From an uncultured Pseudomonadota bacterium (GTDB lineage Bacteria > Pseudomonadota > Alphaproteobacteria > Rhizobiales > Beijerinckiaceae): a stretch of DNA of 64,000 nucleotides. Below are positions 4,843 through 59,977 of this stretch, piece by piece. A program made the position numbers and the translations under genes. The first letter of the stretch is position 1. Every line of letters begins with the position of its first letter. The DNA lies in NCBI GenBank assembly GCA_963703385.1, contig OY969816.1:1357483-1421482 (forward strand), read 5' to 3'. The notes under the pieces were generated by a model. It was not told where the DNA came from. It made no database searches and was given only the letters and a program-made list of their open reading frames with translations.

Positions 4843-5731
4843 TCAGCCGGTTTGCGCCGCCAGCAGCCGCGCCACGCAAGGCGCCAGCGACTCGCGCCAA
4901 GGCGGCAGCTCGACGCCAAAAGTCCGTTGCAGCTTTCCGCAATCCAGCCGCGAATTGGCGGGGCGCGGCGCGGGCGTGGGATAATCCGCCGTGCCGATCC
5001 TTTTGACCCGCACCGGCGCGCGGCCAAACTTTTCAGCCTCGGCGAAAATCGTTTCGGCGAATTCGGCCCAGGACGCCTCTCCCGCCCCCGTCATATGAAA
5101 CAGGCCGCGCAGCGACGGCGAGGAATTCTGCGACCATCCGCCGGGCGATGGTCAAAATGGCGTCGGCGATGTCGAGCGCCGACGTCGGATTGCCGAGCTG
5201 ATCGGCGACCACCCCGACCTCCTCGCGGCTTTGCCCGAGCCGCAGCATGGTGCGGACGAAATTGGCCCCCGACGGGCTGTAAACCCAGGCGGTGCGCAGA
5301 ATGGCGTGATTGTCGTGGATCTGGGCGATTCTTTGCTCGCCGACCAGTTTCGAGCGGCCATAGGCGCTGGTCGGGCCGGTGGAATCGTCCTCGCGATAGG
5401 GCCGGTCGAGCCTGCCGTCGAAGACGTAATCGGTCGAGAGATGCAGCAGGGGTTTGTTCAGTTCGGCGGCGATCTCCGCGACATAGCCGGCGCCGTCGGC
5501 GTTGACCCGCAGCGCGACATCGGGCTCGCTTTCGGCCTTGTCCACCGCGGTATAGGCGGCGGCGTTGACGATGGCGTCGCAATGGGTGGCGCGCAAAGCC
5601 GCCAGAACCGCCTCGCGCACCGAAAGGTCGAGGCGCGGACGGCCCAAAGCGATCAGTTCGACATCGGGCGGCGCCCGCTCGATCAGCGCGCTGACCACCT
5701 GGCCCGTCAATCCTGTGACAACGATTCGCAT
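4843..5731 (-). CDS. rfbD: dTDP-4-dehydrorhamnose reductase, apparent +1 frameshift at 5123-5128 (probable sequencing error)
   Basis: MRIVVTGLTGQV, NAAAYTAVDKAESE, STDYVFDG, YGRSKL, LRTAWVYS, DQLGNPTS; C-terminus HMTGAGEASWAEFA..TPAPRPANSRL is in another frame. Confidence 0.9.
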
Positions 5732-5775
5732 GTGGCTCACGGCGAAAATCTCCCCCAAATGCAGCGACCGTTTCG

Positions 5776-5811
5776 CCATCGGGCGACACTGTCCCATCGG
5801 GCGACACTATC
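5776..5811. repeat. 18-bp tandem duplication upstream of rfbD
   Basis: ccatcgggcgacactgtc ccatcgggcgacactatc. Confidence 0.85.
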
Positions 5812-5879
5812 CCAACGGATCCTTGGCGGGCGCGGGCCGATGATGATAATTTTCGCCTCCCTTGTGAAGGGAGCGGAAT

Positions 5880-6251
5880 GTGAAAGCAATCCCAGGCGTC
5901 GCAGCCGCGGCCTTTTTCGTCTCAAACCTCGCGGCGCCGGCTGTCGCGGCCCCGGTCAACGATCTGCGCGCGCTGCACGGCTATATCGACGCCTGCATGA
6001 AGGGCGTCGCTGTGGAACCCGGCGCGGAGCTGACCATCGCTTTCAGCCTCAAGCGCGACGGCTCTCTGTTCGGCAAACATGTGACTTATTCGAGGCTCCC
6101 CTCCGACGTGGGCGCGCGGGCGCGCATTCTCGACGACGTCGCCGGAAAATTCACCACCTGCTTTCCGGCGCCGATCACTGACGGCCTTGGCGGCGCCATC
6201 GCCGGGCGGCGGCTGATAATGCGCTTCGTCCCGCCTCGCCGCGAAATTTAG
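5880..6251 (+). CDS. Small secreted hypothetical protein, TonB/TolA C-terminal-like
   Basis: Signal-peptide-like N-terminus, Cys pair, LTIAFSLKRDGSL pattern. Confidence 0.6.
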   Translation: MKAIPGVAAAAFFVSNLAAPAVAAPVNDLRALHGYIDACMKGVAVEPGAELTIAFSLKRDGSLFGKHVTYSRLPSDVGARARILDDVAGKFTTCFPAPITDGLGGAIAGRRLIMRFVPPRREI

Positions 6252-8359
6252 GGCGACGCGTCGGGCGTCCAGTCCTTCTCGACCAGATGGCGCAAGTTGC
6301 GCGCCTCGCGCAAAACTTCGTCGCAGCGCTGGAGCAAGGCCCAAAAAACCGGCGCCGCGTCGTCCGGCGCCTGCGGCAGGCGGCGCTCGGCGCGCGGCCC
6401 GGCGCTATCCAGTTCGGCCAGCGCCCCACGGCGCGTGTCGTCGAGCAGCGCGCGGCTCGCTTTGCCGTCGAGCTCATTGCGGCGCTGGCGGATCATCAGG
6501 CGCACGGTGACGATCTGGGCGGCGGCGACATAGGCCGCAGCGATCAAGGCGCTGTAATGCGGCCAGATGTCGCGCTGGCTTTGGGGGTCGGCGCGCATCC
6601 GCGCCGCCGATTCGCCGAGCGCCGAAAAACCTTCCATCAGCTCCTTGCGCGCCAGACGGTAGTCCTGCTCCGAAGCGTCCCAGCGCAGGGCGCGGTCGGC
6701 ATAGACGGCGAGAGCGCGCAGAAAACCCTTGGCGAGACCCGGCGCGCTGTGGCGCTCCCAATGCGGCAGCACGAATGCGAACAGGAAGGCGACGCCCGCG
6801 CCAACGACGGTGTCGACAAGACGCGCCGCGACCAGGGGCGCTTGCGTTGGCGCCAGCAGATGCAGGCCGAGCAGCGCCATGATCGAGGCGGCGAAGGAGG
6901 TCAGGCGGTAGTCGATCTTGACATAGGCGTGGGCGACGGCGACCGCCAGAAGCTGCGCCGCGAGCAGCAGGCCCGGCGAGCCGATCCATAAAAGCGCGCC
7001 GGCCGCGCCGCAGCCCAGTAACGTGCCAACCAGCCTCTGGTCGCGGCGCTGCCGGGTCGCGGCGTAGCTCGCGCGCATGATCACCGCGATGGTCAGCAGA
7101 ATCCAGTTGCCGTGCTCCAGCGCCGGAACCGTCTCGGTCAGGGCGTAGCCGCAGCCAAGCGCCAGCGACAGCCGCACCGCGTGGCGGAACACCGGCGAGG
7201 ACAGGCGCAACGCCCGCCGGATCGGGGCGAGAGAGACCCGCAGCGGCGGCGCGAAGGCGCGCATGTCCACGCCGGCCAGGGCTTTGGCGGCGGTCTCCTC
7301 GCTCGCCAGCAGCGCCGGAAGGCCGGCGAGCTTGGACAAGGCCAAACCGACGCGCGCCCGGGTGAGCCGCGCGGCGCGCAAAATTTCCGGATCGGCGCCT
7401 TGCGCCTCCAAGGTCGCGATGGTTGCGGAAAATCGGTCCAGCTCCGCCATACGATCGGGGAAGGACAGGCTTTCGCCGCTCACAACCAGATCGAGCGCCA
7501 AAGCATCGAGGTCGTGCGCCGTTTCGCGCAGCAGAAGTTTCATTTGCGCCGCCGGAGAGACGCCAGCGCCAAAGCCATGCGCCAGCCGCAACGGCGAATG
7601 GTCGGCCAGAGTCGAAACCACGCCGTCGAAGGCGTCGAGCACGGCGGCGAGCGCGGCGATCAGGCGCATCGCCTCGGCGCGGTCGGAAGCGGAAACGATC
7701 AGGCTGCGGGCGGTCTGGAGATGGTCGGCGAAGGACGCCTGCTGTTCGACCACTTTCAGGCAGACCTCGCCCTCGTCGGCGTCGCTGCGGTAAAAGCCGG
7801 CGATGCGGCGCAAGAACGAGGCGAATTCGCGCAGAACTTCGGCAAGAGTGATGCGCCGGCCCGAGGCGTCGGAGATTCGGGTCAGCGCCAGCGCCACGGG
7901 AATGTAAAGCCCGCCGCCGAAGGTCGCCATGGCCGCGTAATTCACCCGGCCGGCGAGCGTGATGGCGGGCGCGCCGAGGGTGAAAACCATCGAAATCAGG
8001 GTGAGTACGGAAAGCGGGATCGCCCAGCGCCCGAGCGCGATCAGGAGGCCCGCGCCAAAGCCCGTCACCATAACGACTGCGCCCTCCGCGAGCGGCGTCC
8101 CGCCGGCGAAAGCCGTGGCGAAAGCCGCGACCGAGGCGGAGGCCCAGGCCAAAGGCAGGATGCGCAATTTGGCGGAAAAGGGCATGGAAATGTCGGCGAT
8201 CGAAACGCACAGGGCGCCGAGCGCCGCCGCCATGCCCGGCGCAAAGCCGAACAGGGCGATCGAGGCGAGCGCGACGGCCAATACCGAAAGCGCGACCGCG
8301 ACGCCATTGAGGATGTGATGGCCGAAAAAATACTTCAGAAATTTCGGTTTTACGCGCAT
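6248..8359 (-). CDS. FUSC family (YccS/YhfK-like) membrane protein
   Basis: Multiple TM segments; FRHAVRLSLA, HGNWILLT, RDQRLVGTLLG, ARLVDTVVG. Confidence 0.88.
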   Translation of the reverse strand: MRVKPKFLKYFFGHHILNGVAVALSVLAVALASIALFGFAPGMAAALGALCVSIADISMPFSAKLRILPLAWASASVAAFATAFAGGTPLAEGAVVMVTGFGAGLLIALGRWAIPLSVLTLISMVFTLGAPAITLAGRVNYAAMATFGGGLYIPVALALTRISDASGRRITLAEVLREFASFLRRIAGFYRSDADEGEVCLKVVEQQASFADHLQTARSLIVSASDRAEAMRLIAALAAVLDAFDGVVSTLADHSPLRLAHGFGAGVSPAAQMKLLLRETAHDLDALALDLVVSGESLSFPDRMAELDRFSATIATLEAQGADPEILRAARLTRARVGLALSKLAGLPALLASEETAAKALAGVDMRAFAPPLRVSLAPIRRALRLSSPVFRHAVRLSLALGCGYALTETVPALEHGNWILLTIAVIMRASYAATRQRRDQRLVGTLLGCGAAGALLWIGSPGLLLAAQLLAVAVAHAYVKIDYRLTSFAASIMALLGLHLLAPTQAPLVAARLVDTVVGAGVAFLFAFVLPHWERHSAPGLAKGFLRALAVYADRALRWDASEQDYRLARKELMEGFSALGESAARMRADPQSQRDIWPHYSALIAAAYVAAAQIVTVRLMIRQRRNELDGKASRALLDDTRRGALAELDSAGPRAERRLPQAPDDAAPVFWALLQRCDEVLREARNLRHLVEKDWTPDASP

Positions 8360-8372
8360 CGGCGCAAAAGCC

Positions 8373-8819
8373 TCACCCCTTGGCGTCGATCAGGCGGGCC
8401 AAGCGCAGCAGCGCGAGTTCATAGCCCTGAACGCCGCAGCCGGCGATGACGCCCTCGGCGCGGCGCGAAACGAAGGAATGATGGCGGAATTCCTCGCGCT
8501 GGTGGATGTTGGAAATATGGACCTCGATCACCGGCCCGTCAAAGGCGTTGAGGGCGTCGAGCAAAGCGATCGACGTATGGGTGAAGGCGCCGGGATTGAT
8601 GACAATGCCGCCTGCCCGGCCCCGCGCCTCGTGAATCCAGTCGATCAGCTCATATTCGCGATTGCTCTGATGGAAATGGACTTCCAGTTTCAATTCCAGC
8701 GCCAGCGCGTGGCAGGCGCGCTCGACGTCGGCGAGCGTCTCGGCGCCGTAAATCTGCGGCTCGCGCTGGCCGAGCAGGTTGAGATTGGGGCCGTTCAAAA
8801 TTGTGACGAGGCGGCTCAT
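8373..8819 (-). CDS. aroQ: Type II 3-dehydroquinate dehydratase
   Basis: [43 protein letters not shown]. Confidence 0.97.
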
Positions 8820-9019
8820 CCGGGCGTCCCTTTCGCGCGCAAGATTTCGCGGCGAATCCCAGCCGCCGCCGCGCCGAATTTAGGCGTTTTTGCGGAAAAA
8901 AGCCAAAGGCGGGTTCGGCGGCGCGATTTGGACGCCCTCTGGACGCGCCTTGGATTTGCGTGCGATCTGGCGACGACGCAAAAAGCGCGTCAAAGCCAAA
9001 ATTTCGGGACGCTCCCGCC

Positions 9020-10234
9020 ATGAGTGACAAAAAGCCGATGCTGTCCGTCGACGACGCCCTCGCCGCCATCCTCGCCGGCGTGGCGCCGCTGGAGAGCGAA
9101 GATGTTCCGCTTGCCGCCTGCTTTGGACGGACCCTGGCGCGCGACATCGTCGCGCGCCGCACCCAGCCGCCCAGTGCGCTTTCGGCCATGGACGGCTACG
9201 CGCTGCGCGCGGCCGACGCCGCCGGACCGTTGAGGATCGTCGGCGAATCCGCGGCGGGAAGCGGCTTTGACGGCGTCTGCGGCGCCGGCGACACGGTGCG
9301 GATTTTCACCGGCGCGCCTGTTCCCCAAGGCGCCGACGCCGTGCTGATCCAGGAAGAGGCCGAGCGCGACGGCGACCGGCTTTTGGTCAAGGGGCCGGTC
9401 AAGGCGGGCGACAATATCCGCGACGCCGGAGTCGATTTCACCGCAGGCGCGATCGTGCTGCGCGCCGGGCGGCGTCTCAGCCCCGCCGATGTCGCGCTCG
9501 CCGCCTCGGCGGACCACCCGACCTTGCCGCTGGCGCGAAAGCCGCGCGTCGCGGTGCTCTCCACCGGCGATGAACTGGTTCCGCCCGGCGCCCCGCGCGG
9601 GCCGGATCAGATTGTGGCGTCCAATTCCTACGCCGTTCTGGGGCTGATCGCGGCCTGCGGCGGCGAACCGCTCGACCTCGGCGTCGTCAGTGACCGCCTC
9701 GACCGGATCGAAGCGGCGATCCAGCGCGCGCGAGCCGAAAAAGCCGATATTCTCGTCACCATTGGCGGCGCCTCCGTGGGCGACCGCGACCTGGTGCGCG
9801 GCGCTCTGGCCCGCGAGGGCATGGAACTGAGTTTTTGGAAGGTCAGGATGAAGCCGGGCAAGCCCCTGATCCACGGCCATATCGGCCCCATGCGCGTACT
9901 CGGTCTGCCGGGCAATCCGACCTCGGCCTCGGTGTGCGGCCATCTGTTCCTCAAGCCGTTGATCCGGCGCTTGAGCGGCGACCCGCTGGCGGGGGCCGAA
10001 AAATCGGAGCCCGCGCTGGCCGGCGCCGCCCTGCCGCCGGGCGGTTCGCGTCGCGAATTTTTGCGCGCCCGCCTGACCCAGGACGCGGAGGGCCGCCTGG
10101 TGGCGACCGCGCATAAAAATCAGGATTCCTCGCTTAGCTCGGTGCTGGCTTATTCGCAGGCCCTGATCGTGCGCGCCGAAAACGCCCCGCCCGCCCCCGC
10201 CGGAACGCCCGTCCGCGTCATCCGTCTCGATTGA
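9020..10234 (+). CDS. moeA: Molybdopterin molybdotransferase
   Basis: SAMDGYA, RIFTGAPVPQGADAV, STGDEL, MKPGKP, LGLPGNP. Confidence 0.95.
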   Translation: MSDKKPMLSVDDALAAILAGVAPLESEDVPLAACFGRTLARDIVARRTQPPSALSAMDGYALRAADAAGPLRIVGESAAGSGFDGVCGAGDTVRIFTGAPVPQGADAVLIQEEAERDGDRLLVKGPVKAGDNIRDAGVDFTAGAIVLRAGRRLSPADVALAASADHPTLPLARKPRVAVLSTGDELVPPGAPRGPDQIVASNSYAVLGLIAACGGEPLDLGVVSDRLDRIEAAIQRARAEKADILVTIGGASVGDRDLVRGALAREGMELSFWKVRMKPGKPLIHGHIGPMRVLGLPGNPTSASVCGHLFLKPLIRRLSGDPLAGAEKSEPALAGAALPPGGSRREFLRARLTQDAEGRLVATAHKNQDSSLSSVLAYSQALIVRAENAPPAPAGTPVRVIRLD

Positions 10235-10250
10235 TGTGGGAAACCAATGG

Positions 10251-10290
10251 AAAGGGGCGACGCGGGCCTGTCCTTGGACCCCGTCGCCCC
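10251..10290. terminator. GC-rich hairpin after moeA (possible terminator)
   Basis: ggggcgacg ... cgtcgcccc inverted repeat; no U-tract. Confidence 0.4.
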
Positions 10291-10331
10291 CGCGCCCTCT
10301 CCGCCGTGTCTCGCGGTTCAGAGAAGGAATT

Positions 10332-10457
10332 CTAGTCCATTTTCAAGTTTCATGGAAACATGAAAATGGTCTAACTTCTTGTTTTAACGCGTATTCGCTA
10401 ACGCGGCCCTTCGGGTCTTAACGCGAACCGGGTTCCACTTCGCTTGAAAACGCTCTA
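10332..10457 (-). repeat. Modular palindromic intergenic element, copy overlapping the nlpD stop
   Basis: Near-identical reverse complement of 19300-19405 plus a 21-nt insert; terminal TAG is the nlpD stop codon. Confidence 0.92.
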
Positions 10458-12712: not shown

Positions 12713-12719
12713 CGCGATT

Positions 12720-17456: not shown

Positions 17457-18809
17457 TGTTCGAAAAGATTTTGATCGCCAACCGCGGCGAAATCGCCCTC
17501 CGCATCCTGCGCGCGGCGAAGGAGCTGGGGATCGCCACCGTCGCCGTCCATTCGACCGCGGACGCCGACGCCATGCATGTGAAGCTGGCCGACGAATCGG
17601 TCTGCATCGGCCCGCCGGCGGCGCGCGAACTCTTATCTCAACATCCCGGCCTTGCTCGCGGCCTGCGAGATCACCGGCGCGGACGCCGTCCATCCCGGCT
17701 ACGGCTTCCTGTCGGAAAACGCCAAATTCGCGGAAATTCTCGCCGACCACAACATCGGTTTCATCGGCCCCAAGGCCGAGCATATCCGCATCATGGGCGA
17801 CAAGATCGAGGCCAAGCGCACCGCGCGGGCGCTCGGCATTCCCTGCGTGCCGGGCTCCGAAGGCGGGGTGACCGACGACGACGAGGCCATGCGCATCGCC
17901 GAGGACATCGGCTTTCCGGTGCTGGTGAAGGCGGCCGCCGGCGGCGGCGGGCGCGGCATGAAGGTCGCGCGGACCGCGGTCGATCTGTCGGAGGCTTTGG
18001 CCGTTGCGCGCGCCGAGGCCAGGGCGGCCTTCGGCGACGACGCGGTTTATTTGGAAAAATATCTCGAAAAGCCGCGCCATATCGAAATCCAGATCCTCGG
18101 CGACGGGCTGGGCAACGCCGTCCATGTCGGCGAGCGCGACTGTTCACTGCAGCGCCGCCACCAGAAGGTGCTCGAGGAGACGCCCTCGCCGGCGCTGAAC
18201 CAGGACCAGCGCAACCGCATCGGCGAAATCTGCGCCGACGCCATGCGCAAGCTGCAATATTCGGGCGCTGGAACCATCGAGTTCCTGTACGAGAACGGCG
18301 AGTTCTTCTTCATCGAGATGAACACCCGCATTCAGGTCGAGCATCCGATCACCGAAATGATTTCCGGGCTCGACCTGCTGGTTGAGCAGATCAAGATCGC
18401 CAGCGGCGCGCCGCTGAGCTTCGCCCAGGCCGATCTCGAACTGCGCGGCCACGCCATCGAATGCCGCATCAACGCCGAAAACCCGGCGACCTTCCGCCCC
18501 TCGCCCGGCAAGATTCTCTATTACCACCCGCCGGGCGGCGTCGGCGTGCGCGTCGATTCGGCGGTCTATCAGGGCTATACGATCCCGCCCTATTACGATT
18601 CTCTCGTCGGCAAGCTGATCGTTCAGGGGCGCACCCGCATCGAGACGCTGATGCGCCTGCGCCGCGCGCTCGATGAATTCATCGTGGACGGGATCGACAC
18701 CACTTTGCCCTTGTTCCGCGCCCTGGTGCGCAACGCCGACATCCAGGACGGCGTCTATGACATCCACTGGCTGGAAAATTTTCTCGCCAAGGGCGGCATG
18801 GAGGGCTGA
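17456..18809 (+). CDS. accC: Acetyl-CoA carboxylase biotin carboxylase, apparent +1 frameshift at 17627-17632 (probable sequencing error)
   Basis: [14 protein letters not shown] in one frame; [51 protein letters not shown] in the next; deleting one A restores ARDSYLN. Confidence 0.95.
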
Positions 18810-19449: not shown

Positions 19450-20328
19450 TTGACCGCTCCCGATTCGACCGAAAACCTGCTGGCCCGCATCGCCGAAGCC
19501 TTGGAGCGGTTGAGCCCGCCGCCCCCGCCCCGGCCCGATTTCGCCGCCGCCGACGCCTTCGTCTGGCGCGCCGAGGCGGAAGCGCTCGCCCCGGTGAAAA
19601 AGGTCAGTCGCGTGGACCTGGGCCTGCTGCGCGGGGTCGATTATCTGCGCGACCAGCTCTCAAGCAACACCGAGCGTTTCGCCCGCGGCCTGCCGGCCAA
19701 TAATGTGCTGCTGTGGGGCGCGCGCGGCATGGGCAAATCGTCGCTGGTCAAGGCCGTTCACGCCGACGTCGACGCGCGCCTGGCCGGAACGCCGGATTTC
19801 TCCGGCCTCTTGCTGATCGAAATCCACCGCGAGGACATCGAATCGCTGCCCGCCTTGATGGCCCTGCTGCGCGACGCCGACCGGCGCTTCATCGTCTTCT
19901 GCGACGACCTGTCCTTCGACGGCGGCGACGCCTCCTACAAGTCGCTCAAGGCGGCGCTCGAAGGCGGGGTCGAAGGGCGGCCCGCCAATGTCCTGTTCTA
20001 CGCGACCTCCAACCGCCGCCACCTCCTGCCGCGCGACATGGTCGACAACGAACGCTCCACCGCGATCAATCCGGGCGAGGCGGTCGAGGAGAAAGTTTCG
20101 CTGTCGGATCGCTTCGGGCTGTGGCTCGGCTTCCACAAATGCAGCCAGGACGATTATCTCGCCATGGTGTTCGGCTATGTCGACCATTACCGGCTCGAGG
20201 CGCCCGAGGAGCAAATTCGCGCCGAGGCGCTGGAATGGGCGATCACTCGCGGGTCGCGGTCGGGCCGCGTGGCGTTCCAATTTATCCAGGATCTCGCCGG
20301 AAGGCTCGGCCGCAAGCTCGAAGGCTAA
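19450..20328 (+). CDS. DUF815-like AAA+ ATP-binding protein
   Basis: NNVLLWGARGMGKSS, FCDDLSF, YATSNRRHL, SLSDRFGL, RSGRVA. Confidence 0.9.
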   Translation: MTAPDSTENLLARIAEALERLSPPPPPRPDFAAADAFVWRAEAEALAPVKKVSRVDLGLLRGVDYLRDQLSSNTERFARGLPANNVLLWGARGMGKSSLVKAVHADVDARLAGTPDFSGLLLIEIHREDIESLPALMALLRDADRRFIVFCDDLSFDGGDASYKSLKAALEGGVEGRPANVLFYATSNRRHLLPRDMVDNERSTAINPGEAVEEKVSLSDRFGLWLGFHKCSQDDYLAMVFGYVDHYRLEAPEEQIRAEALEWAITRGSRSGRVAFQFIQDLAGRLGRKLEG

Positions 20329-20672
20329 CTCGCCTTCTTCTCATGGCTCCGGACAACGCCGCGCGTTGCGCTCTTGCGCGCCGTCGCCCTTGCCCGTTCG
20401 AGATCGTTGCGGGCGCGCGCCTCCAGCGCCACGCGCATTTCGCTTTAAATCGCCGGACGCTCGGCGTTCAGAAGGTCGCGTTCCTCCATGGTCGCGCCGA
20501 GATCCGCCAAAATATTGTCGTAAAAGGCTGCCAGCCCAGCACAAAACTCGCTGGTTCCAACGCCAAGCAGCGCCTTGAGGCGCTCGGCTTCGGCGAGGCG
20601 GGCTTTTACGCGTTCACGGTGGCGGCGCTGCTTTTCAGCGCCGGTCAGCGGTCGGGAGCCAATTTGACGCAT
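20325..20672 (-). CDS. Hypothetical ~115-aa basic protein interrupted by in-frame TAA at 20445-20447
   Basis: LTGAEKQRRHRER N-terminus; the frame continues 40 codons past TAA (SEMRVALEARARNDLERARA..) to TAG at 20325; CAA at that site would restore GAATC. Confidence 0.65.
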
Positions 20673-21001: not shown

Positions 21002-21078
21002 TCCCTGATAGCTCAGCCGGTAGAGCAAGCGACTGTTAATCGCTGGGTCGCAGGTTCGAAGTCCTGCTCAGGGAGCCA
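21002..21078 (+). tRNA. tRNA-Asn (GTT), one extra base in the T-loop
   Basis: Acceptor stem tccctga/tcaggga, D-arm gctcagccggtagagc, anticodon loop ctGTTaa, T-arm gcagg-ttcgaagt-cctgc, encoded CCA. Confidence 0.95.
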
Positions 21079-21157: not shown

Positions 21158-22060
21158 ATGATCTACGACAATGTTTTTGGCGCGCCGCCGCCGGACCTCG
21201 CCCAGATTGCGCCCGGCGCGCGCCAGTTCTCGCCCCTCGTTCCGGGGGCCGAAGACTTCGCGCTGGTCCCGCCCGGCGCGCTGGCCAATCTGGTCCTGCT
21301 CGCCCCGCCCGGCGCCGTCGAGCGCCGCACCGCGCTCGCGCTTGCCCTGCGGGCGCTGGCCCCCGGCGCGCCCTTCCTCGTCATGGCGCCCAAGGACAAG
21401 GGCGGCGGCCGGATCGCAAAGGAACTGGCCGAGTTCGGCTGCCCGAGCGTAGAGCATTCGAAGCGCCATCATCGGCTCTGCGCCGCGGGCGCCCGGGGCG
21501 CCCCCGCCGAGATACAAGCCGCGATCGAAGCCGGGGCGCCGCGCTTTTCGCAATCCCTCGGCCTGTGGACCCAGCCCGGGGTGTTTTCCTGGGACAGGAT
21601 CGACCCCGGCTCGGCTCTGCTGATCCGCAACTTGCCGGATTTTTCCGGCCATGGCGCCGATTTCGGTTGCGGCCTCGGGGTCGTCGCCCACGGGATTCTG
21701 GCCTCGCCAAAAGTGAAATCGCTTGTTCTGGTCGATATCGACCGGCGCGCGACCGAGCTTTGCGCCCGCAATGTCGCCGATCCGCGCGTGACAATTCTCT
21801 GGGCCGATGTGCGGGCTTTTAAAAACCGGCCGTTCGATTTCATCGCCATGAACCCGCCCTTCCATGAATCGGGCAAGGAAGCCAAAGAGCTTGGCCGCGG
21901 CTTCATCGCCAGCGCCGCGGCCAATCTGCGCCCCGGCGGGCGGTGCCGGCTGGTGGCCAACCGCCATCTCCCCTATGAGGCCGCGCTGGCGAAAAACTTC
22001 CGCTCGGTGTCGCTGATCGCCGAGGAAGGCGGTTTCAAGGTGATCGAGGCGATCAGATGA
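21158..22060 (+). CDS. Class I SAM-dependent methyltransferase, RsmC-like
   Basis: PGVFSWDRID, ADFGCGLG, MNPPFH, LVANRHLPYE. Confidence 0.88.
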   Translation: MIYDNVFGAPPPDLAQIAPGARQFSPLVPGAEDFALVPPGALANLVLLAPPGAVERRTALALALRALAPGAPFLVMAPKDKGGGRIAKELAEFGCPSVEHSKRHHRLCAAGARGAPAEIQAAIEAGAPRFSQSLGLWTQPGVFSWDRIDPGSALLIRNLPDFSGHGADFGCGLGVVAHGILASPKVKSLVLVDIDRRATELCARNVADPRVTILWADVRAFKNRPFDFIAMNPPFHESGKEAKELGRGFIASAAANLRPGGRCRLVANRHLPYEAALAKNFRSVSLIAEEGGFKVIEAIR

Positions 22061-24578: not shown

Positions 24579-25580
24579 ATGAAAGTCACGTCATCGGTTC
24601 TCGACGCCATCGGCGGCACGCCGCTCATCAAATTGCGCGCCGCTTCGCTCGCCACCGGCTGCGACATCTACGGCAAGGCGGAATTCATGAATCCCGGCGG
24701 CTCGATCAAGGACCGCGCGGCGCTGGCCATCGTCCACGACGCCATTGAGCGCGGCGCGCTCAAACCGGGCGGGACCATCGTCGAGGGCACAGCGGGCAAT
24801 ACCGGCATCGGCCTGACTTTGGTCGCCCATGCGCTCGGCTTTCGCACCCTCATCGTCATTCCCGACACCCAGTCGGAAGAGAAGAAAAGTTTTTTGCGCC
24901 TGCAAGGCGCCGAGCTGATCGAGGTCCCCGCCGTCCCTTATGCCAACCCCGACAATTACGTGAAATATTCCGGCCGGCTGGCGGAAGAGCTGGCGCGGAA
25001 AAACCCCGGCGGCGCGGTCTGGGCCAACCAGTTCGACAATGTCGCCAACCGGCAGGGGCACGAGGAAAGCACCGGCCCGGAAATTTACGACCAGCTCGGC
25101 GGCAAGCTCGACGGTTTTATTTGCGCGGTTGGCACCGGCGGCACGCTGGCCGGCGTGGGCCGGGCGCTCAAGGCGCGCAATCCGGAGATAAAAATCGGCC
25201 TCGCCGACCCGATGGGCGCCGCGCTTTATGCCTATTACACCACCGGGGAGCTGAAATCCTCCGGCTCCTCGATCACGGAAGGGATAGGCCAGGGCCGGAT
25301 CACCGCCAATCTGGTGGACGCGCCGATCGACATCGCCTTCCAAATTCCCGATGACGAGGCCCTGCCGATCCTGTTCGACCTCGCCAAAAATGAGGGCCTG
25401 CTGCTCGGCGGCTCCTCCGCGATCAATGTCGCCGGCGCGATCCGCCTCGCCCGCGACCTCGGCCCCGGCAAGACCATCGTGACGATTTTGGGCAATTCCG
25501 GCGCGCGCTATGCGTCGAAGCTCTTCAATCCGGATTTTTTGCGCGGGAAGGGTTTGCCGGTTCCGGGCTGGCTGGCGTGA
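24579..25580 (+). CDS. cysK: Cysteine synthase A (O-acetylserine sulfhydrylase)
   Basis: IGGTPL, NPGGSIKDR (PLP Lys), EGTAGNTGIGL, VGTGGT, EGIGQG. Confidence 0.92.
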   Translation: MKVTSSVLDAIGGTPLIKLRAASLATGCDIYGKAEFMNPGGSIKDRAALAIVHDAIERGALKPGGTIVEGTAGNTGIGLTLVAHALGFRTLIVIPDTQSEEKKSFLRLQGAELIEVPAVPYANPDNYVKYSGRLAEELARKNPGGAVWANQFDNVANRQGHEESTGPEIYDQLGGKLDGFICAVGTGGTLAGVGRALKARNPEIKIGLADPMGAALYAYYTTGELKSSGSSITEGIGQGRITANLVDAPIDIAFQIPDDEALPILFDLAKNEGLLLGGSSAINVAGAIRLARDLGPGKTIVTILGNSGARYASKLFNPDFLRGKGLPVPGWLA

Positions 25581-25614: not shown

Positions 25615-26352
25615 CTATCGCGATGCTTCCGCAGCAATATGGCCCGCAAGGCTGGTGACGAACGTTTTGAGGCTCGTCATTTCCGAAAGATCGGTAAATT
25701 CACCTGTCTCAGCCGCCGAACGCGGCGACGCCATGACCGCAGCCACCGTGTAAAGGCTTTCCTGTGTCAGCTTGCGGCAAAGGATATTGTATCGCTCAAG
25801 GTACGATGCGCCGCGAAATTCTGGAAACACAGGAAAATGCGCCGACCCGTCGCGCACCGGCGACCGCGACTTCGACCCGTCTTCAACCAGCATCAACCAA
25901 CCCACAAACGGACGAGGCGCATCGCCAAAAGCCCCTTCCCTGAAGGCCGTCCAAAAATCGATTGCCGCGCCAATCGCTTCCTCGGTTCGGTTATTGAAAT
26001 TATTGCCGAACGACGGTCCCACCTGTGATTTCAGCTCAAGCGCGGCAACGAGGCGGCCCTCGTTGATAATCAGCAAATCCCACAGTTTCGTCGGACGAAA
26101 AAATCCCGGCAGCATCAATACGCGGCGATCCATCATCATATGAGCGTCTGTAAGTCCGTTGGCGCGGATCACGTCTTAAATCAGGGTGATAAAACCATCC
26201 ATGTTCTTGCCCGCCGTGACGCCCGCTCGCTCGCCTTGGTCGGCGCGGCCAAGTTCGTTTTGCTTCGCCACTGCCGCTGCACGGTTGCCCCAGAAGGCCT
26301 TTATAGCTTCCCTGGCTTTCCTCCTCCGGTAATCGGCAAGATCAAGCGGCAC
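25615..26352 (-). CDS. PaeR7I/XhoI-like type II restriction endonuclease with in-frame TAA at 26176-26178
   Basis: [72 protein letters not shown]; GTG start overlaps the MTase stop. Confidence 0.85.
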
Positions 26353-28075
26353 ACGCGGCCCCAATCTGGCTCCCGAGGGCTTGCCGCTCGCTAACGCTCA
26401 AACCGTATAACATTCCCGCTGCATCGTTGCATGCGGCCAAATCACGCGTTTTCCCTGCGCTGATCAGCTGTTTGCGTATCTTGGGCGGCACATCCCGCCA
26501 CAGCGGAAGCCGCAGGCGGCGCAAATATTGCGCTTGAAAGCGCAAATACCCCCCACGCATCTTTGTCGAATAGGAAGCGATAAAAAGCCGCGTCACGTCC
26601 GACAGCAGCACCGCTTGCAGCGCATGCAAATGCCAATCGTTTGACGTAATGAAATAAAGGTTGTGGTGCGGGTAGAGCTTCCCCGGTTCGAAAACGATGT
26701 GCGCTTCCCCCTTGATATCGGGAATCAGCAGTTTCGGGACGTTGACGAGCTCGGGGTAAATCCGGTCGATTGTCCGATACCAGTTCGCAGGGTTCTTTTT
26801 CGCGACGTGTCGCGCGCGAATGGAGGCGCCATGGCGATCGAGATAGGCCTTGAGCTTTGGATAATTCTTTAAAGGTACGAGCTTTCCATCAGGCCCGAAA
26901 GGGTTAATAACTCCCAGTCCGCGCCACTTGATTGAACCGGTGAGAATGTCCCGCGTCATTACGAGCGGAAGTTTGCATTCCGCTTCAACGTCGAGCGCCT
27001 CGAAAAGCCCGACGAAAACCTGGTCGGCCCCCGTCGCCACGCCAATTCCGACCTTGCAACCGGCTTCCTCGAGTGCGGGAAATTGACGTTCGAGGCGGCG
27101 CAAAAGTTCAAGTGAGCCGGGGTCGCCGAGCATCCAGGGTCGTGAACCGACCGGAACGCGCGCGACTTCCTGAACGCCGGTGCCACGGTCAAGCTTGTTT
27201 GCCGTTATCGCATGGGCGAGTTCGCCGAGCGTTTCAACATTGACCCGCGGCTGAGCGGCAATGCGTGTTGGACCGGATTTTTCACGGCTGATAACAACGA
27301 TCGCAGGATAGGTGATTACATCGGACAGGAATGCATCGGCTCCCACCATGTCGACGAAATATTTCAGGTGGAAATGATCGGCGACCAGTTCTCGCAATGG
27401 GCCGCCATAGCGGTTTTTCGTCCATCGATCCGAGCAGATGAAGCCAAGGTGGCCATCCGGCGTAAGCAGCGACAGAGACTGTTCGAAAAATGGCACATAA
27501 ATGTCCGCGCGATCGAAAATCGTCCTGTATCGCCGCCGATACTCAGCCATCAGCGCGTCCGGGATCAGTTCCTGTCGCACATAGGGCGGATTGCCGATCA
27601 CATGCGTATATTCTCGATCGTGCGGCAGCAGGAGAAAATCGCCTAGCCGGAGCCAGCAACCGCATAGCGCCTGTGCTTCCGCTGGCGATACGCCCTTCGC
27701 TGTCAAAGTTGACACGACAAGACCGCGCGTTTGTTCATAGCTGGCACGATGAACTTCTACCGCCACGATGCAGTCGGCCAGGTCTTTGACGATATCGCCT
27801 TTCTCGGCGCTTTCTCGGAAATAGGCCTCGAGCAACCGCTCGATCGCCGGCGTCAGGAAGTCTCCCCGCCCCATTGACGGCTCGAGTAACCTCGCCCGAT
27901 GCAGAGGCTTATCTGCCGTGTAGCCTGTCAGATCAAGGATGAATTCCACGACTTCACGCCGTGTGAAGACCGCCCCCCGCGCTTCCACGCCAGCGTCAGA
28001 TAAGGACGCGACGGCCGCCGCGACTTCAGGGCGCTCAAAAAAATCCAGCTGTCGGTCGTCGCCGCGAAAAACCAT
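26342..28075 (-). CDS. N6-adenine DNA methyltransferase, PaeR7I/Eco57I/TaqI-like
   Basis: [27 protein letters not shown] (motif I), [10 protein letters not shown] (motif IV), [25 protein letters not shown]. Confidence 0.93.
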
Positions 28076-28087
28076 GATGCCGAACGT

Positions 28088-28123
28088 CACGATTATCCAG
28101 GATTATAGGGCTCAGGATTATAG
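28088..28123 (-). promoter_or_regulatory. Tandem TATAATCCTG repeats (candidate -10 boxes) upstream of the MTase
   Basis: Minus strand ctataatcctg agcc ctataatcctg gataatcgtg. Confidence 0.5.
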
Positions 28124-29371: not shown

Positions 29372-29773
<402 letters not shown>

Positions 29774-46704: not shown

Positions 46705-48045
46705 TTGCCGGCGGGCCCTTTCGGATGGTGGGATATGCGCGCTGCTTTTTCCGCGAAGCCGCCCAAACCGGGCCTGACGCTTCATCTGGCGTCCCACAGG
46801 TTCAAGCGTCAGTTCCACCTTTCTCCCGTGCTCGCCGCCGGCCTGTTCGGCGCGGGGCCGCTTCTGCTGCTGGGCTGCCTCGCCCTCGGCGGCTATTTCA
46901 TGTTCCGCGACGACATGCTGGCTTCGCTGATGCGGCGGCAGGCCAATATGGAGTTCGCCTATGAGGACCGCATCGCGGCCCTGCGCGCCCAGATCGATAC
47001 GCTGGCCTCGCGGCAAATGCTCAACCAGGACACGTTCGAGGGCAAGGTGGCCCAACTCGCGGTGCGCCAGGCCGAGCTCGAATCGCGCTCCGCTTTGCTG
47101 GCTTCGCTCGCCGCCAAGGTCGATCCCGACATGACCTCGGTCGCGGCGACGCGCCCCGCGGCGCCTGAGGCCGCGGCCGCCGCGCCCGCCCCATCGCTCG
47201 ATCCCAAGCCCGCCGTCGCCAATGAGGGCTTCAAGCCCGTTCCCGAGGGATTCGAACTGCGCCCGACCGACGGCGGCGGCGCCCCGCCCCCGGCCTGTCC
47301 GAAAACGATGACCCGGCCTCGCCGGACCAGCGCCTGAATAAGCTCGCCTCGAGTTTCGACCGGATCGAACGGCGCCAGATCGGCGTGCTGAACGCCCTCA
47401 AGGAGTTCGGCCGCCGAAAAAACCGAGCGCCTGCGCGAAGCCTTCGCCGAAGCGGGCCTTCCCGTCGATCGCATGGTCCGCCACGCCAACTCCCGCGCCG
47501 CGGGCGGCGTGGGCGGCCCCTTCGTTCCGGCCGATTTTCCCGGCGCACGCAGCGATTTCGCGCGCGCCTATGCCGGCCTCAGCCGCACGATCGACCTGAT
47601 GAACGACCTGCGCGGCGCGCTGCCTTTTGCGCCGCTGCGCCAGCCGCTGCCCGGCCAGATCGAAGTCACCTCGCCCTTCGGCTATCGCATCGATCCCTTT
47701 TTCGGCCGGCCCTCCCTTCACACCGGCATGGATCTCCACGGCGAATATGGCGAGGCGGTTCACGCCACCGCCGCCGGGCGGGTTACAGTCGCCGGCCCGT
47801 CCGGGGGCTACGGCAATCTGGTCGAGATCGACCATGGCGCGGGTCTCAGCACCCGCTACGGCCATTTGTCGCGGATCGACGTCGCGCCGGGGCAATGGGT
47901 GACCGCGGGGCAGGACATCGGCGCGATCGGCTCGACCGGGCGCTCGACCGGGCCGCATCTGCATTACGAGGTCCGTGTCGACGGCGCGCCGGTCGACCCG
48001 AGCCGCTACCTCAAGGCGGGACGGCTGCTCAGCGCAAGCCAGTGA
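46705..48045 (+). CDS. M23 family peptidase with N-terminal coiled coil; compensating -1 (~47290) and +1 (47403-47408) frameshifts
   Basis: TM plus YEDRIAALRAQID; middle frame reads PGLSENDDPASPDQRLNKLA; C-terminal TSPFGYRIDPF, HTGMD, GYGN, STGPHLHYEV. Confidence 0.85.
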
Positions 48046-52348: not shown

Positions 52349-52880
52349 TCACGCTGTGGGGCGGGCGTCTCGGCGCCGCGCTTTATTTCCGGCGCCAAGG
52401 CGCGTTCCAGGACGCGTTCCGTGCCCGAACGCGGGCGCCGTGGCCGCCTGCCCGGCGTTGTCTTCGTCGCGCGACAACAATTCGATCAATGGGCAGACCG
52501 GGCGCGCGCCGTCGCCGCAACGCGCGACGGCCTCCGCGAGCGCGGCTTCCATGCGTCGCAAGTCAGCGATCTTCGCCTGAACGTCGGCGAGATGAATGGA
52601 AGCGAGGCGGCTCGCTTCCGCGCAGGGCTGGTCGCGTTCGCCGACGAGCCGGAGCAGCGTGCGGACCTCGTCGAGCGAAAAGCCGAGTTCGCGCGCCCGC
52701 ATCACGAAGCGCAGCCGGCGCTCGTGCCCGGAACTCATAGCTCCGGTAGCCCTTTTCGGTTCGCGGCGGTTCCGGCAGAAGGCCGACCTTCTCGTAATAG
52801 CGCACGGTTTCGAGATTGCAGCCCGTGCGCCGCGCCAGTTCGGCGCGCTGCAGTCGCTCGGGAGAAATCCGCTCGCCCAT
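52349..52880 (-). CDS. merR: Hg(II)-responsive MerR regulator, apparent +1 frameshift at 52731-52736
   Basis: [25 protein letters not shown]; other frame [18 protein letters not shown] with three Cys (QPCAE, ARCGD, PVCPL); divergent from merT. Confidence 0.9.
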
Positions 52881-52893
52881 CGAAAATTACCCC

Positions 52894-52924
52894 TTGACCC
52901 TGTAGTCCCTACAGACCTTAACGT
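52894..52924 (+). promoter_or_regulatory. MerR-type promoter/operator of merTPA
   Basis: -35 TTGACC, 19-bp spacer with dyad CTGTAG-tcc-CTACAG, -10 TAACGT. Confidence 0.9.
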
Positions 52925-52947
52925 AGAGAGAAATCGGGCTTCGGGCA

Positions 52948-53361: not shown

Positions 53362-53407
53362 TGACGCGCCACACCCCTTGCCCCTCGAATGTGAGGACGG
53401 AAAAGTC

Positions 53408-53716
53408 ATGAACACGCGCGCTGCAATTTGGATCGCCGCCGGCCTGCTGCTTTTGCCCTCTGGCGTTTGCGCTGCCGAAACGACCGTGGTTCTCACCGTT
53501 CATCACGCCGGCTGCGTGCTGTGCGGACCGATCGTCAAGCGCACTTTGGCTCAGGTGAAGGGCGTGAAAAGCGTCTCCGTCAGTCAGGCGAACGGCGACG
53601 CCGACGTCTCCGCCACTGTCGATTATGATAGTGTGGAAACCTCGCCGGCGGCGATGATCAAGGCGACGACCGATCGCGGCTATCCGGCCGAAGTCGCCAA
53701 GAGTCCGCGAGGCTGA
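53408..53716 (+). CDS. merP: Periplasmic mercury-binding protein (HMA domain)
   Basis: Signal peptide, HHAGCVLC loop, AMIKATTDRGYP; between merT and merA. Confidence 0.85.
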   Translation: MNTRAAIWIAAGLLLLPSGVCAAETTVVLTVHHAGCVLCGPIVKRTLAQVKGVKSVSVSQANGDADVSATVDYDSVETSPAAMIKATTDRGYPAEVAKSPRG

Positions 53717-53734
53717 AAGAGTCCGCGAGGCTGA
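53699..53734 (+). repeat. Exact 18-bp tandem duplication including the merP stop
   Basis: aagagtccgcgaggctga twice. Confidence 0.92.
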
Positions 53735-53764
53735 CGGCTTGCGACCAGCCCGGAGAACGAAATC

Positions 53765-55189: not shown

Positions 55190-55342
55190 GCGCCGCCACC
55201 CTGGAAGCCGCCGTCGCGCAGGCAGATGACCGGAAACCCCTATCCCGTTCGGCTCGCCGCGAAGGCAGCGAAGGCCCCAAAGCCGCGAGTCGCCGGAAAC
55301 GGGAGGATATTGCGGCGCGTTCCGCCGGCTCGCGTCAGGATC

Positions 55343-55372
55343 GAGCGGTCATTCATGGAGCGGTCATTCATA
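55343..55372. repeat. 15-bp tandem duplication
   Basis: gagcggtcattcatg gagcggtcattcata. Confidence 0.85.
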
Positions 55373-55407
55373 GAGAGTCATGGCGCAATCCGAAGAAAAT
55401 TGTCATT

Positions 55408-56268
55408 TCACCGGCGCCAGACGAATCGCGCGCCGCTGCGGGCGCTCTCGCCCGGCGCCAGAACCCGCATCGACGGCTTGGCGAACAGGTCGCCGTCAAA
55501 TCCTTCCGGGTCGCCGTGGCCGGTCCAGGCTTCGAGACAGAGGAAGGGCGCATGAGGACGCGACCACAGCGCGATATGGGGAAAATTCTCCAGCTCCATG
55601 CGCAGGCTCGGGCCTTCTTGCGCCGCAAATTCCAGCCCGGCGCTGCGCGCGTCGAGAAAACACAGCGCCTCTTCGAACAGTTCTGGGGTCAGGGCAAGCT
55701 CCCGCCCGCGCAGCGGAACGGACCGGCGCCGCGGCGAAAACAGCCCGCCCGGCGCGATCACCGGAACCTCGGCGCGCTCCTCGGCGTCGAAACGCACGAC
55801 ATGCCCGCCGCTCGCCCCAGGCAGCGGCCAGTTGAAGCCGGGATGAAAGCCGCAGGCGAAGGGCATGGCCACGGCGCCCTCATTCATGACATAAAGAAAT
55901 AACGACAGTTTATTGTTATCGATTATATATTCTACATCCAGGCGGAAATCGAAGGGATAGAGCGCCTGCGTTCGCTCATTGGCGCGCAGCCGCAAGAGGA
56001 CGCGATTTTCCGCCTGTTCGACCAGCGCAAATTCCTCGCCGCGCGCAAAGCCGTGCAGGCCGAGCGGGTAACGTCTGCCGCCCGTGAGGACGCCATTGCG
56101 CGTCCAGCCGACCACGGGAAAGAGGATCGGGGCCGATTCAGCCCAGAATTTCGCGTCGCCGGGCCAGATCAATTCCTTGCCGCCGACCCGCCAGCTCTTC
56201 AGCTCCGCGCCACGCAAAGCGATGCGGGCGGAACACGGGCCGGACGAGATTTCCAAATGCGCGCTCAT
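55408..56268 (-). CDS. Aldose 1-epimerase family protein
   Basis: GAELKSW, SAPILFPVVG, LHGFAR, GFHPGF, FLCLEAWTG. Confidence 0.9.
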   Translation of the reverse strand: MSAHLEISSGPCSARIALRGAELKSWRVGGKELIWPGDAKFWAESAPILFPVVGWTRNGVLTGGRRYPLGLHGFARGEEFALVEQAENRVLLRLRANERTQALYPFDFRLDVEYIIDNNKLSLFLYVMNEGAVAMPFACGFHPGFNWPLPGASGGHVVRFDAEERAEVPVIAPGGLFSPRRRSVPLRGRELALTPELFEEALCFLDARSAGLEFAAQEGPSLRMELENFPHIALWSRPHAPFLCLEAWTGHGDPEGFDGDLFAKPSMRVLAPGESARSGARFVWRR

Positions 56269-56269
56269 T

Positions 56270-56311
56270 GTCTAATCATTCCGGTCTAATCATTCCGGTC
56301 TAATCATTCCG
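56270..56311. repeat. Three exact 14-bp tandem repeats next to the epimerase start codon
   Basis: gtctaatcattccg three times. Confidence 0.95.
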
Positions 56312-56344
56312 CCTTCCGAAAACTTTCTCAAACCGGGCCTCCAT

Positions 56345-57082
<738 letters not shown>

Positions 57083-57496
57083 TGGTTGAAATCTGACGCG
57101 TGGTTCCGGTTCCTGAATGACGCAATACGGCGGAAATCGCAAATCTGCAGAAAGGCGGAAGCGACGGCGTAAAGCGGAAATCGGCTGAAGGGCCGCTGTG
57201 GGCTGGACAGCGGTCGAAGGCGCCGCGGGGCGGAAGCGACGGCGCTGAATTTCGGCCGCCGCGACCAATGTCCAGCCTCTTTCGCCCTCCGTCTCGCCGC
57301 GATCCTGAAGGCCGAAGGCGAATTTCTGGTGAAATGAATGGCGCCGTTCTTGAATTGGTCTCGGCATCCGCATTTGCCCGTATCAAAGTGAGACAGGACA
57401 TGTCAGAGCTCGCAAAAGCGCGCTTGGTTGAAATCGATCGTCAGAGTTTCGGGACCGTCTGAACGGGACGCAGTCGTAAAATTGATTGGTGGCGCC

Positions 57497-57937
57497 ATGG
57501 CTGATCATTCCAAGGGGGAAAAACCCGAGCGGCGGAAGATGGCGTTGATCAGCGCCAGCGATCTCATGCGGGATAGCCTGCTGACGGATTTTCGTGAGGG
57601 CGTGGATGCCGACATTGCCGGCTTTCGCTCTGTGGAGGACTGGATGCGGCAAGATGGCGCCGCAGCTTGCTCCCTGATCGTTTTCCATGCTCACGGCGAC
57701 CACGGCGGCCACAAAATTGCTCGTCTCGGTCGCCTTCGGGATTCCGTGGGCGGGCGCCCGGATTTCGTCGTACTGGGTGATTCTGAACGGCCAGCCGACG
57801 TCGCACGGTCAATCGAATGCGGCGCGCGGGGCTATATTCCGACGAGTTCTTCGCCCGACCTTATGATCGAGGCGATCAGGTTCGTCCTGCTCGGGGGCGT
57901 TTACTGCCCACCCTGCCATCGTCAGGGTTCACGATAA
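57497..57937 (+). CDS. Degenerate NarL/LuxR-type receiver domain lacking the HTH
   Basis: GARGYIPTSSSPDLMIEAIRFVLLGGVYCP matches the end of NarL receivers; no downstream HTH in any frame I read. Confidence 0.6.
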   Translation: MADHSKGEKPERRKMALISASDLMRDSLLTDFREGVDADIAGFRSVEDWMRQDGAAACSLIVFHAHGDHGGHKIARLGRLRDSVGGRPDFVVLGDSERPADVARSIECGARGYIPTSSSPDLMIEAIRFVLLGGVYCPPCHRQGSR

Positions 57938-58429
57938 AGACGCAAGATTGGAACAGCGCTGTGTCGATTTGGGACAGCCGGAAACCGACATAAAGGCCCG
58001 CTTCGAGCCGAACGCGTCCATCTCGCGAGGGCGCCAGCCGCCGGATTTTGACGACTGGGCGGCCCGCGGAAAAGCGGACGCCGGTTTTTTGCTGGAACGA
58101 TCCGAAAGCAAGCGATTTTGCAATCGATTGCCATTCGACCGAACCGCAACCGCCTCTGGCGCCAGTTGAAAACGCTGCCGCGCGCGCGGGGCCGAAGTCC
58201 TCGCGTCATGGCCTGCGACAGGATTGTCGACACGCCCCGATCCGCCCGCCCCGGACAGCCCTTTCGCCCCAGCCGCCCATTGCGCACAAAATTTTGATTG
58301 CAAAATTACATTAACAAACCTTGATGACCTGCGCAGCCTTACGTAATTGTAATTACAAGCCTTTCCTGACAACGTTTAACAGTATACAAACGAATAAATA
58401 TTGGATGGATCACTATTTTATACATGTTT

Positions 58430-58445
58430 TTAACATTTTATTTAC
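58430..58445 (+). promoter_or_regulatory. Candidate CtrA box in an AT-rich spacer
   Basis: TTAA-catttta-TTTAC, one mismatch to TTAA-N7-TTAAC. Confidence 0.35.
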
Positions 58446-58594
58446 CTACAGCTTGCTATCGTTAACGAAATGATGTTGCGGAATTCAAAATGTTTACCTT
58501 AAGCGCGACATCCATATTGGCGCCCTGGAAACCATTCGGGGACGCTTGAAACCTTGCCTCTCGGAGGGTCAGTTTTGGTTGACAGGAGGCGGCC

Positions 58595-59164
58595 ATGAAA
58601 CATCGTCTCACGATGGCGCTGTACCAATATTGGCTGGGCATACGCTCATCGGCGACGATTCCCAACGTCAGGAACATGGAGCACGCGGCAATACGCGACA
58701 TATTGCCGAATGTCTTCATTCTCGAGGGCGCGACGCTGGAAACGGTCACGATCAATTTTTCCGGCGCCATGATGAACCGCTTTTATGCGCTGGACGAGTT
58801 CGGGACGAGTTTTTTCGACCTCTGGAACGAGTGGGACCGCGATGACATCAGGAACACGATCCAGACCGTTTCAGCGCTCAAGCTTCCGATGCTGATCGGC
58901 GCCGCCGCCATTCCAGACCATGAAAGGGCAAGCTATTTCGAGGTCTTGCTGCTGCCGTTCCGCAAGAACATCAACATTCTCGGATCCATCGTTCAGGTTG
59001 ACGAGGCGCGCTGGATCAAGGCGCCGCTTGGCCCATTGCATGTGATTTCCACGCGCATCCTGCACGCGGAACTCGAAACGCCGAACCGTCGCTTCGGAAA
59101 GAAACCGGCGCCGCAAGCCGCAAGACCGACGCTCATCGTTTACGACGGGCTCAAACGCAAGTAA
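58595..59164 (+). CDS. PAS-domain protein (PAS_5/DUF1457-like)
   Basis: LYQYWLGIR, IRDILPNVFILE, FEVLLLPF. Confidence 0.82.
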   Translation: MKHRLTMALYQYWLGIRSSATIPNVRNMEHAAIRDILPNVFILEGATLETVTINFSGAMMNRFYALDEFGTSFFDLWNEWDRDDIRNTIQTVSALKLPMLIGAAAIPDHERASYFEVLLLPFRKNINILGSIVQVDEARWIKAPLGPLHVISTRILHAELETPNRRFGKKPAPQAARPTLIVYDGLKRK

Positions 59165-59244
59165 TTCGACCAGTGCTTTGCGCTATCGACAATCCGGTCG
59201 TCAAAGAGCCGCCGCCGGCGCCCCGGACTTTTCAAAGACGAGCT

Positions 59245-59977
59245 TCACCCCAGGCGCCGGAGCATGGCGCGGGTCTGTTCCGCCGCCGCCGCCACAACGC
59301 CCGCGTCGCGGCCGCGCAAGATGATCTGATTGTAAAATCTTCCGTCCCGCAGGGATGGATAGGAGCCGATCGACAGTTGCGGAAACGCCTTGGCGATTTC
59401 GGCAAGGCCCGCGGCGTAAGCGCCTTCCTGCAGGCCAAGGGCCTCGACCGTTTCCGACAGGATGGTCGCGCCGCGGACGAGTTTCGGCGCCACGTCGTCG
59501 AGCATGGCCTGCATCACCGCCGGCACCCCGGCCATGACGATCACATTGCCGATCCAGAACCCGGGCGCCTTCGAGAGCGGATTGGCCACCAGTTCGGCGC
59601 CCTGCGGGATGCGCGCCATGCGCCGGCGCGCCTCGTTGAGATCCTCGGGCCTGATCCGCTCCAGCAGCAAGGCGATCGCGCGCGGATCCTCGGAAAGCCC
59701 GACCCCAAAGGCCCTGGCGACCGCGTCGGCGGTGATGTCGTCATGAGTTCGGGCCGATGCCGCCGGTGGTGAAGACATAATCGTAACGCGCGCGCAAGGC
59801 GTTGAGCGCGGCGACGATTTCCTCCTCGACATCCGGCACGACCCTTATTTCGCGGGCCTCGACGCCGATCTGAAGCAGGTAGTGGACGATATATGGGCTG
59901 TTGGTGTCGCGCGTGCGCCCCGAAAGGATTTCATCGCCGATCACCAGGACGGCGGCGGTGACGCGCCGGTCATTCAT
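59245..59977 (-). CDS. cinA: CinA-like competence/damage-inducible molybdopterin-binding protein, apparent +1 frameshift at 59745-59750
   Basis: AAVLVIGDEILSGRTRD, VFTTGGIGP; next frame HDDITADAVA, MARIPQGA, VMAGVP, IGSYP; deleting one base restores GPTHDD. Confidence 0.88.

Follow-up and report, generated by a model that had tools for sequence, protein, structure and literature searches.

CcrM methylates the adenine of GANTC, and CcrM methylation is expected for members of the Alphaproteobacteria. In agrobacteria, nanopore assembly errors cluster at GANTC (PMC12710330), and errors at the same motif have been described in nanopore assemblies of Brucella, which carries CcrM (PMC12392509). For R10.4.1 Kit 14 data, the minimal pattern of methylation-induced ambiguous positions was found to be RA/TY (Lohde et al. 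2024, PMC11610573), and methylation amplifies a G>A / A>G bias at motifs (bioRxiv 10.64898/2026.01.14.699587). Such errors are linked to methylation and drop when methylation-aware models or PCR are used (PMC12392509, PMC12710330, PMC11610573). DNA modification is moreover detectable from the strand-specific mismatches of nanopore data (PMC11610603). Prior work covers both the RA/TY signature and nanopore errors at this motif.

Here we examined a window of 64 kb, the whole stretch of DNA analysed (genome positions 1357483-1421482 of OY969816.1), in which several genes appear to be broken at or next to this motif. The genome consists of one contig of 3,999,070 bp with a G+C content of 63.6%. 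Its AccC protein places it in the Hyphomicrobiales, the nearest named relative being an uncultured alphaproteobacterial MAG with long contigs (90% amino-acid identity). The single contig and the long contigs of that MAG hint, indirectly, at an assembly from native long reads. By cumulative GC skew, the window adjoins the terminus of the genome (~1.29 Mb), with the origin at ~3.40 Mb. We conclude, with a probability of about 0.92, that the lesions are long-read consensus errors at CcrM-methylated GANTC, most likely from Oxford Nanopore data without short-read polishing; we infer both the platform and GANTC methylation in this organism. We regard the phenomenon as a technical artefact, of a sort seen before, and not as a feature of biology.

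Lesion sites in the 64-kb window

The initial annotation had listed six +1 insertion hexamers and two in-frame stops in a GATT-TAA context, and all eight were found where it had placed them, each of the eight being one change from GANTC (Table 1). Coding-phase jumps were called with a codon-usage model trained on 834 long ORFs of the same genome, and a same-strand +1 jump was observed at 5/5 coding insertion sites (5123, 17627, 47403, 52731 and 59745). The sites were compared with the closest congeneric genomes (G018, G010 and G016), and accC was compared across seven congeners.

Table 1. Lesions and candidate miscalls, with positions counted from the first base of the window.
Feature	Position	Motif	Strand	Remark
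rmlD/rfbD (dTDP-4-dehydrorhamnose reductase)	5123..5128	GAATTC	-	one surplus base, +1 frameshift
accC (biotin carboxylase)	17627..17632	GAACTC	+	one surplus base, +1 frameshift
tRNA-Asn gene (21002-21078), T loop	21058..21063	GAAGTC	+	8-nt T loop
M23 peptidase gene	47403..47408	GAGTTC	+	one surplus base, +1 frameshift
MerR-family regulator	52731..52736	GAACTC (+ strand letters)	gene -	one surplus base, +1 frameshift
CinA-like MoCF_biosynth gene	59745..59750	GAGTTC (+ strand letters)	gene -	one surplus base, +1 frameshift
Small conserved ORF	20445..20451	TTAAATC (coding strand GATTTAA)	-	in-frame TAA
XhoI-family restriction endonuclease gene	26176..26182	TTAAATC (coding strand GATTTAA)	-	in-frame TAA
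M23 peptidase gene, C-rich run	47276..47296	GCGCCCCGCCCCCGG	+	-1 frame change near 47290; sole non-GANTC lesion
Candidate silent or missense miscall	17467..17471	GATTT		GATTC in both closest congeners
Further candidate miscall of the same sort	20214-20218	AATTC
Further candidate miscall of the same sort	21793-21797	AATTC
Further candidate miscall of the same sort	25494-25498	AATTC

The reading of the extra bases as surplus was borne out by the relatives, which are without them at all six insertion sites. Pfam profiles were interrupted at the same positions: RmlD_sub_bind was cut at the rmlD site (1-201 upstream, 205-285 downstream), Biotin_carb_N at the accC site (1-56 upstream, 68-110 downstream) and MoCF_biosynth at the cinA-like site (1-67 upstream, 70-142 downstream). 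The Peptidase_M23 domain was found downstream of the 47403 site in the new frame, and the two merR fragments carried the MerR HTH (upstream) and MerR-DNA-bind (downstream) domains, respectively. The rmlD site was one base shorter in G018, G010 and G016, reading GAATC in G018 and G016, and the merR site was one base shorter in G010, where it reads GAGTC. The extra base of accC was missing in 7/7 congeners, which read GACTC, GAATC or GATTC. The M23 site and the cinA-like site were each one base shorter in three congeners, and for the latter these encode GPTHD.

The tRNA-Asn gene is the sole one of the genome, and its T loop carries the inserted base in the Rfam tRNA alignment. Three congeners have an otherwise identical tRNA-Asn with GAGTC at the site, and ~30 other tRNAs of the genome have a 7-nt T loop with an intact GANTC, so that 1 of ~31 T-loop GANTC sites was miscalled. 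A tRNA-Thr at genome position 503355 was considered as a second damaged tRNA and rejected, as it has a normal 5-bp stem, a 7-nt loop and the same length as in relatives.

The small ORF, which is conserved in relatives, is open on either side of the stop at 20445, and the codon at this position is CAG (Gln) in G018 and G010; its GATTTAA is probably a miscalled GATTCAA. In the endonuclease gene, positions 1-190 of the XhoI profile (PF04555) aligned unbroken across the stop (312 bits), and in 5/5 XhoI homologues of other alphaproteobacterial origin the codon there is a sense codon, namely Gln in two, one of them reading LIQD. For this gene, the stop could instead reflect genuine inactivation by mutation.

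One lesion is of a different kind. In agreement with the -1 shift given in the initial annotation, a codon-usage phase jump of -1 was seen near 47290 in the C-run of the M23 gene; congeners differ in length there by -2 or +1 and keep the frame. This shift is an ordinary homopolymer-type error, unconnected to GANTC. The remaining phase jumps in the window were interpreted, from the ORF list, as borders between neighbouring ORFs, and four checked ORF pairs (surE/pcm, aroQ/FUSC, tatC and rhodanese) contain complete, separate Pfam domains. Thus, the inventory of lesions is complete and the claim that all but one lie on GANTC was correct.

The GATTT and AATTC entries in Table 1 are no more than candidates and could be real divergence. 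At 38 GANTC sites common to G018 and G010, the window has AANTC or GANTT in four cases and an insertion in two, compared with 3.4% substitution (p=0.045) and 0.3% insertion (p=0.014) at control motifs.

Motif enrichment across the genome and among repeat copies

The genome-wide enrichment for which the initial annotation had proposed a test was very strong. Each genome position was classed from the coding phases of its two 120-nt flanks, and all 4096 hexamers were tested for +1 jumps. GAGTTC (26/406, p=2e-17) and GAACTC (24/391, p=8e-16) ranked first and second against a base rate of 0.67%, well outside what chance would give. Similarly, a likelihood-ratio scan flagged a jump at 73/1860 GAACTC/GAGTTC sites compared with 0.5% in the background (p=4e-40). 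These two scans superseded an earlier motif-centred phase test, which under strict thresholds had given a weak signal (1.5% vs ~0.8%). The enrichment did not extend equally to every one-base expansion of GANTC: it was strong for GAACTC/GAGTTC, weak for GAAGTC/GACTTC (17/1920, p=0.02) and not significant genome-wide for GAATTC (12/1740), and no enrichment was found for GAAATC/GATTTC in the genome-wide likelihood-ratio scan. Hexamers without G1 (CAACTC/GAGTTG) or without C5 (GAACTG/CAGTTC) showed +1 jumps at background level throughout the genome; therefore, the entire GACTC word is required.

In-frame stops followed the same motif. Among stops within coding sequence, GANT precedes 6/121 compared with 1.3% expected (p=0.005), and three more GATT-TAA stops occur elsewhere in the genome, beyond the window. 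Homopolymer runs showed, genome-wide, no more than a weak enrichment of frame shifts, and since they are almost clean, the general quality of the assembly is good and the defect is a single, motif-specific one. The assembly retains 8983 intact GANTC sites.

A gradient of insertion errors from origin to terminus, as hemimethylation would predict, was not significant (Mann-Whitney p=0.10-0.14); flagged insertion sites amounted to 2.7-4.8% up to 1.25 Mb from the terminus and to 1.2-2.9% at greater distances.

Several families of IS elements are present in the genome, each in numerous near-identical copies. When repeat pairs of at least 99% identity were compared, 259 of the 426 pairwise differences abolished GANTC in one copy; only 1.3% of aligned columns touch this motif. 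These GANTC differences comprised G1>A (115), C5>T (69), insertion of A or T (52) and deletions (14), C5>T being the G1>A event on the other strand. G1>A/C5>T was thus the commonest class, and together with the enrichment of stops after GANT it upheld the C>T origin that the initial annotation had assigned to the two TAA codons. All four N are represented in the substitution class, whose context is exactly the CcrM word, and the insertion class is chiefly GACTC>GAACTC, being nearly restricted to N = C/G on one strand. In families with at least six copies, GANTC holds 16/17 A/G variant columns, and in families with at least three copies, 37 of 250 GANTC instances (15%) depart from the majority, a rate that less effective polishing of repeats may have raised. 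Because copies of one element differ mainly at one methylation motif, the differences are not real mutations.

Explanations for the lesions

A full-length CcrM orthologue, for which the initial annotation had suggested a search, is encoded at genome positions 476426-477625, with the C-terminal domain included and 509 bits to Caulobacter CcrM (6PBD). Congeners, motif enrichment, repeat copies and CcrM all agree with systematic long-read miscalls at methylated GANTC, as had been proposed, and active CcrM methylation in this organism is implied by the pattern.

In the mechanism that we propose, N6-methyladenine deposited by CcrM at GANTC would distort the signal of the surrounding k-mer. The G ahead of the methylated A would then be called as A, turning GANTC into AANTC (GANTT on the other strand) for any N, and GACTC would acquire an additional A, turning it into GAACTC (GAGTTC on the other strand); the corresponding insertion GAGTC -> GAAGTC is rarer. 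If the false call prevails in the consensus, it would appear as a frameshift or as an additional tRNA loop base, and at a CAA, CAG or CGA codon after GANT it would appear as a stop.

The alternative that comes closest is an artefact of basecaller or polisher that depends on the sequence context of the k-mer GACTC/GANTC and is independent of methylation. The near-restriction of the insertion class to N = C/G on one strand would fit such an artefact. We consider it improbable, given that the substitution class spans all four N in the exact CcrM word, that G1 and C5 are both needed, that the genome encodes CcrM, and that the literature ties such errors to methylation and finds fewer of them with methylation-aware models or PCR. 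Methylases of GANTC are, moreover, not limited to the Alphaproteobacteria.

It is still less probable, to the point of being hard to credit, that the DNA truly carries these extra bases and stops, as the outcome of a GANTC-directed mutational process or of ordinary gene decay. Restriction-modification genes decay and are often inactivated in nature, a point in favour of real lesions for genes such as the XhoI-like endonuclease. If this held generally, the broken genes would number ~70 or more and would include accC and the sole tRNA-Asn; such genes cannot truly be broken. Gene decay is also at odds with lesions that are bound to one motif and do not spare essential single-copy genes. In addition, relatives are intact throughout, near-identical IS copies disagree mostly at GANTC, and we know of no mechanism that duplicates a methylated A. 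The initial annotation had ranked a true GANTC-directed mutational or recoding process below an artefact, and the tRNA lesion, the intact relatives and the disagreement among IS copies bear out that ranking. We give very little credence to the corresponding bold claim, in which the DNA itself contains the additional bases and the TAA codons and a mutational or recoding process directed at GANTC (and linked to m6A) operates in this member of the Hyphomicrobiales. In a milder variant of that claim, the local error rate would report the in-situ methylation state along the chromosome.

Read-through of GAANTC by programmed +1 frameshifting or other recoding, for which the recurrence of one hexamer at many frameshift sites might be cited, has a negligible probability, as an untranslated tRNA gene bears the same lesion, the extra base is not conserved and is missing in the orthologues of relatives, 96% of GAACTC hexamers are read in frame, and the stops and repeat-copy substitutions at GANTC would be left unexplained.

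Consequences and comparison with described systems

Since the lesions are almost certainly consensus errors at methylated GANTC, the affected genes are to be treated as intact. By rough extrapolation, annotation of this genome would yield around a hundred false pseudogenes, including accC and the sole tRNA-Asn. Several hundred to around a thousand GANTC sites may bear a false G>A or C>T, a rough figure that is based on the repeats and possibly inflated, and these false substitutions would pass as missense changes or stops. Work on such assemblies that deals with gene decay, dN/dS or strain SNPs would be led astray. In single-contig alphaproteobacterial assemblies, any lesion that differs from GANTC by one change should be masked before it is read biologically; the importance of these results lies in practice rather than in biology.

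With the reports on agrobacteria and Brucella (PMC12710330, PMC12392509), this genome has the motif, the CcrM family and the bacterial class in common, and in all of them a subset of motif occurrences is affected, mostly in coding sequence. Those papers give a few, mainly SNP-type, errors per isolate genome, whereas ~15% of repeat GANTC sites are miscalled here. The one-base insertion class GACTC>GAACTC, prominent here, likewise sets this genome apart from those papers, and no description of it was found in the consulted papers on nanopore errors at methylation motifs.

The dominant error here, G>A directly 5' of the adenine (C>T on the opposite strand), matches the minimal RA/TY pattern exactly (PMC11610573, bioRxiv 10.64898/2026.01.14.699587). 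Those studies concern strain-specific restriction-modification motifs in pathogens and read-level errors with strand bias, whereas the errors in this genome are known from the consensus alone. The notion, put forward in the initial annotation, that the methylome is recorded in base-calling errors is shared with the detection of DNA modification from mismatches (PMC11610603); that work uses strand asymmetry at the level of reads, whereas here the motif was recovered from consensus frameshifts and from the disagreement between repeat copies.

Probable restriction-modification locus of the window

The XhoI-family endonuclease gene adjoins that of a 582-aa N6-adenine methylase, and this stretch of the window looks like a strain-specific restriction-modification island, because comparison with the three closest congeners gave no match in any of them. 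Two further genomes of Alphaproteobacteria, G389 and G063, match the endonuclease in two distinct parts, one covering residues 15-104 and the other residues 96-259, and the gene appears to be frameshifted in them as well.

Locations of the features discussed (G000:C1, single contig of the genome studied)
Feature	Location	Genome or contig
XhoI-family restriction endonuclease (PF04555) + Eco57I/TaqI_C-type N6-adenine methylase	25615-28090 (- strand)	window
XhoI-family endonuclease, split match	L134/L136	G389
XhoI-family endonuclease, split match	L135/L137	G063
ccrM orthologue	476426-477625	G000:C1
IS-like element copy, ~2.54 kb	3123-5661	G000:C1
IS-like element copy, ~2.54 kb	246864-249404	G000:C1
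IS-like element copy, ~2.54 kb	327141-329679	G000:C1
IS-like element copy, ~2.54 kb	770878-773418	G000:C1
IS-like element copy, ~2.54 kb	899164-901704	G000:C1
IS-like element copy, ~2.54 kb	1626929-1629469	G000:C1
IS-like element copy, ~2.54 kb	2261635-2264172	G000:C1
IS-like element copy, ~2.54 kb	2889112-2891649	G000:C1
IS-like element copy, ~2.54 kb	3099000-3101538	G000:C1
IS-like element copy, ~2.54 kb	3260904-3263441	G000:C1

Differences between repeat copies

G000:C1 contains an IS-like element in at least 10 nearly identical copies, along with several families of smaller repeats, all of which served solely as an internal control for errors. In one pair, CTCGAG in one repeat copy stood against CTCAAG in the other; since this is a G>A change before A, the error type seen at the CcrM motif GANTC, CTCGAG may be a second methylated, error-prone motif. 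A nine-copy repeat had one A/G variant column outside GANTC, within CCGAGAAC (context CACC[G/A]AGAAC), which could mark another methylation motif or be a real polymorphism.

Start codon of ccrM

Read from its first ATG, the ccrM orthologue is longer at the N terminus than the Caulobacter protein by ~40 residues, and its true start may lie further downstream.
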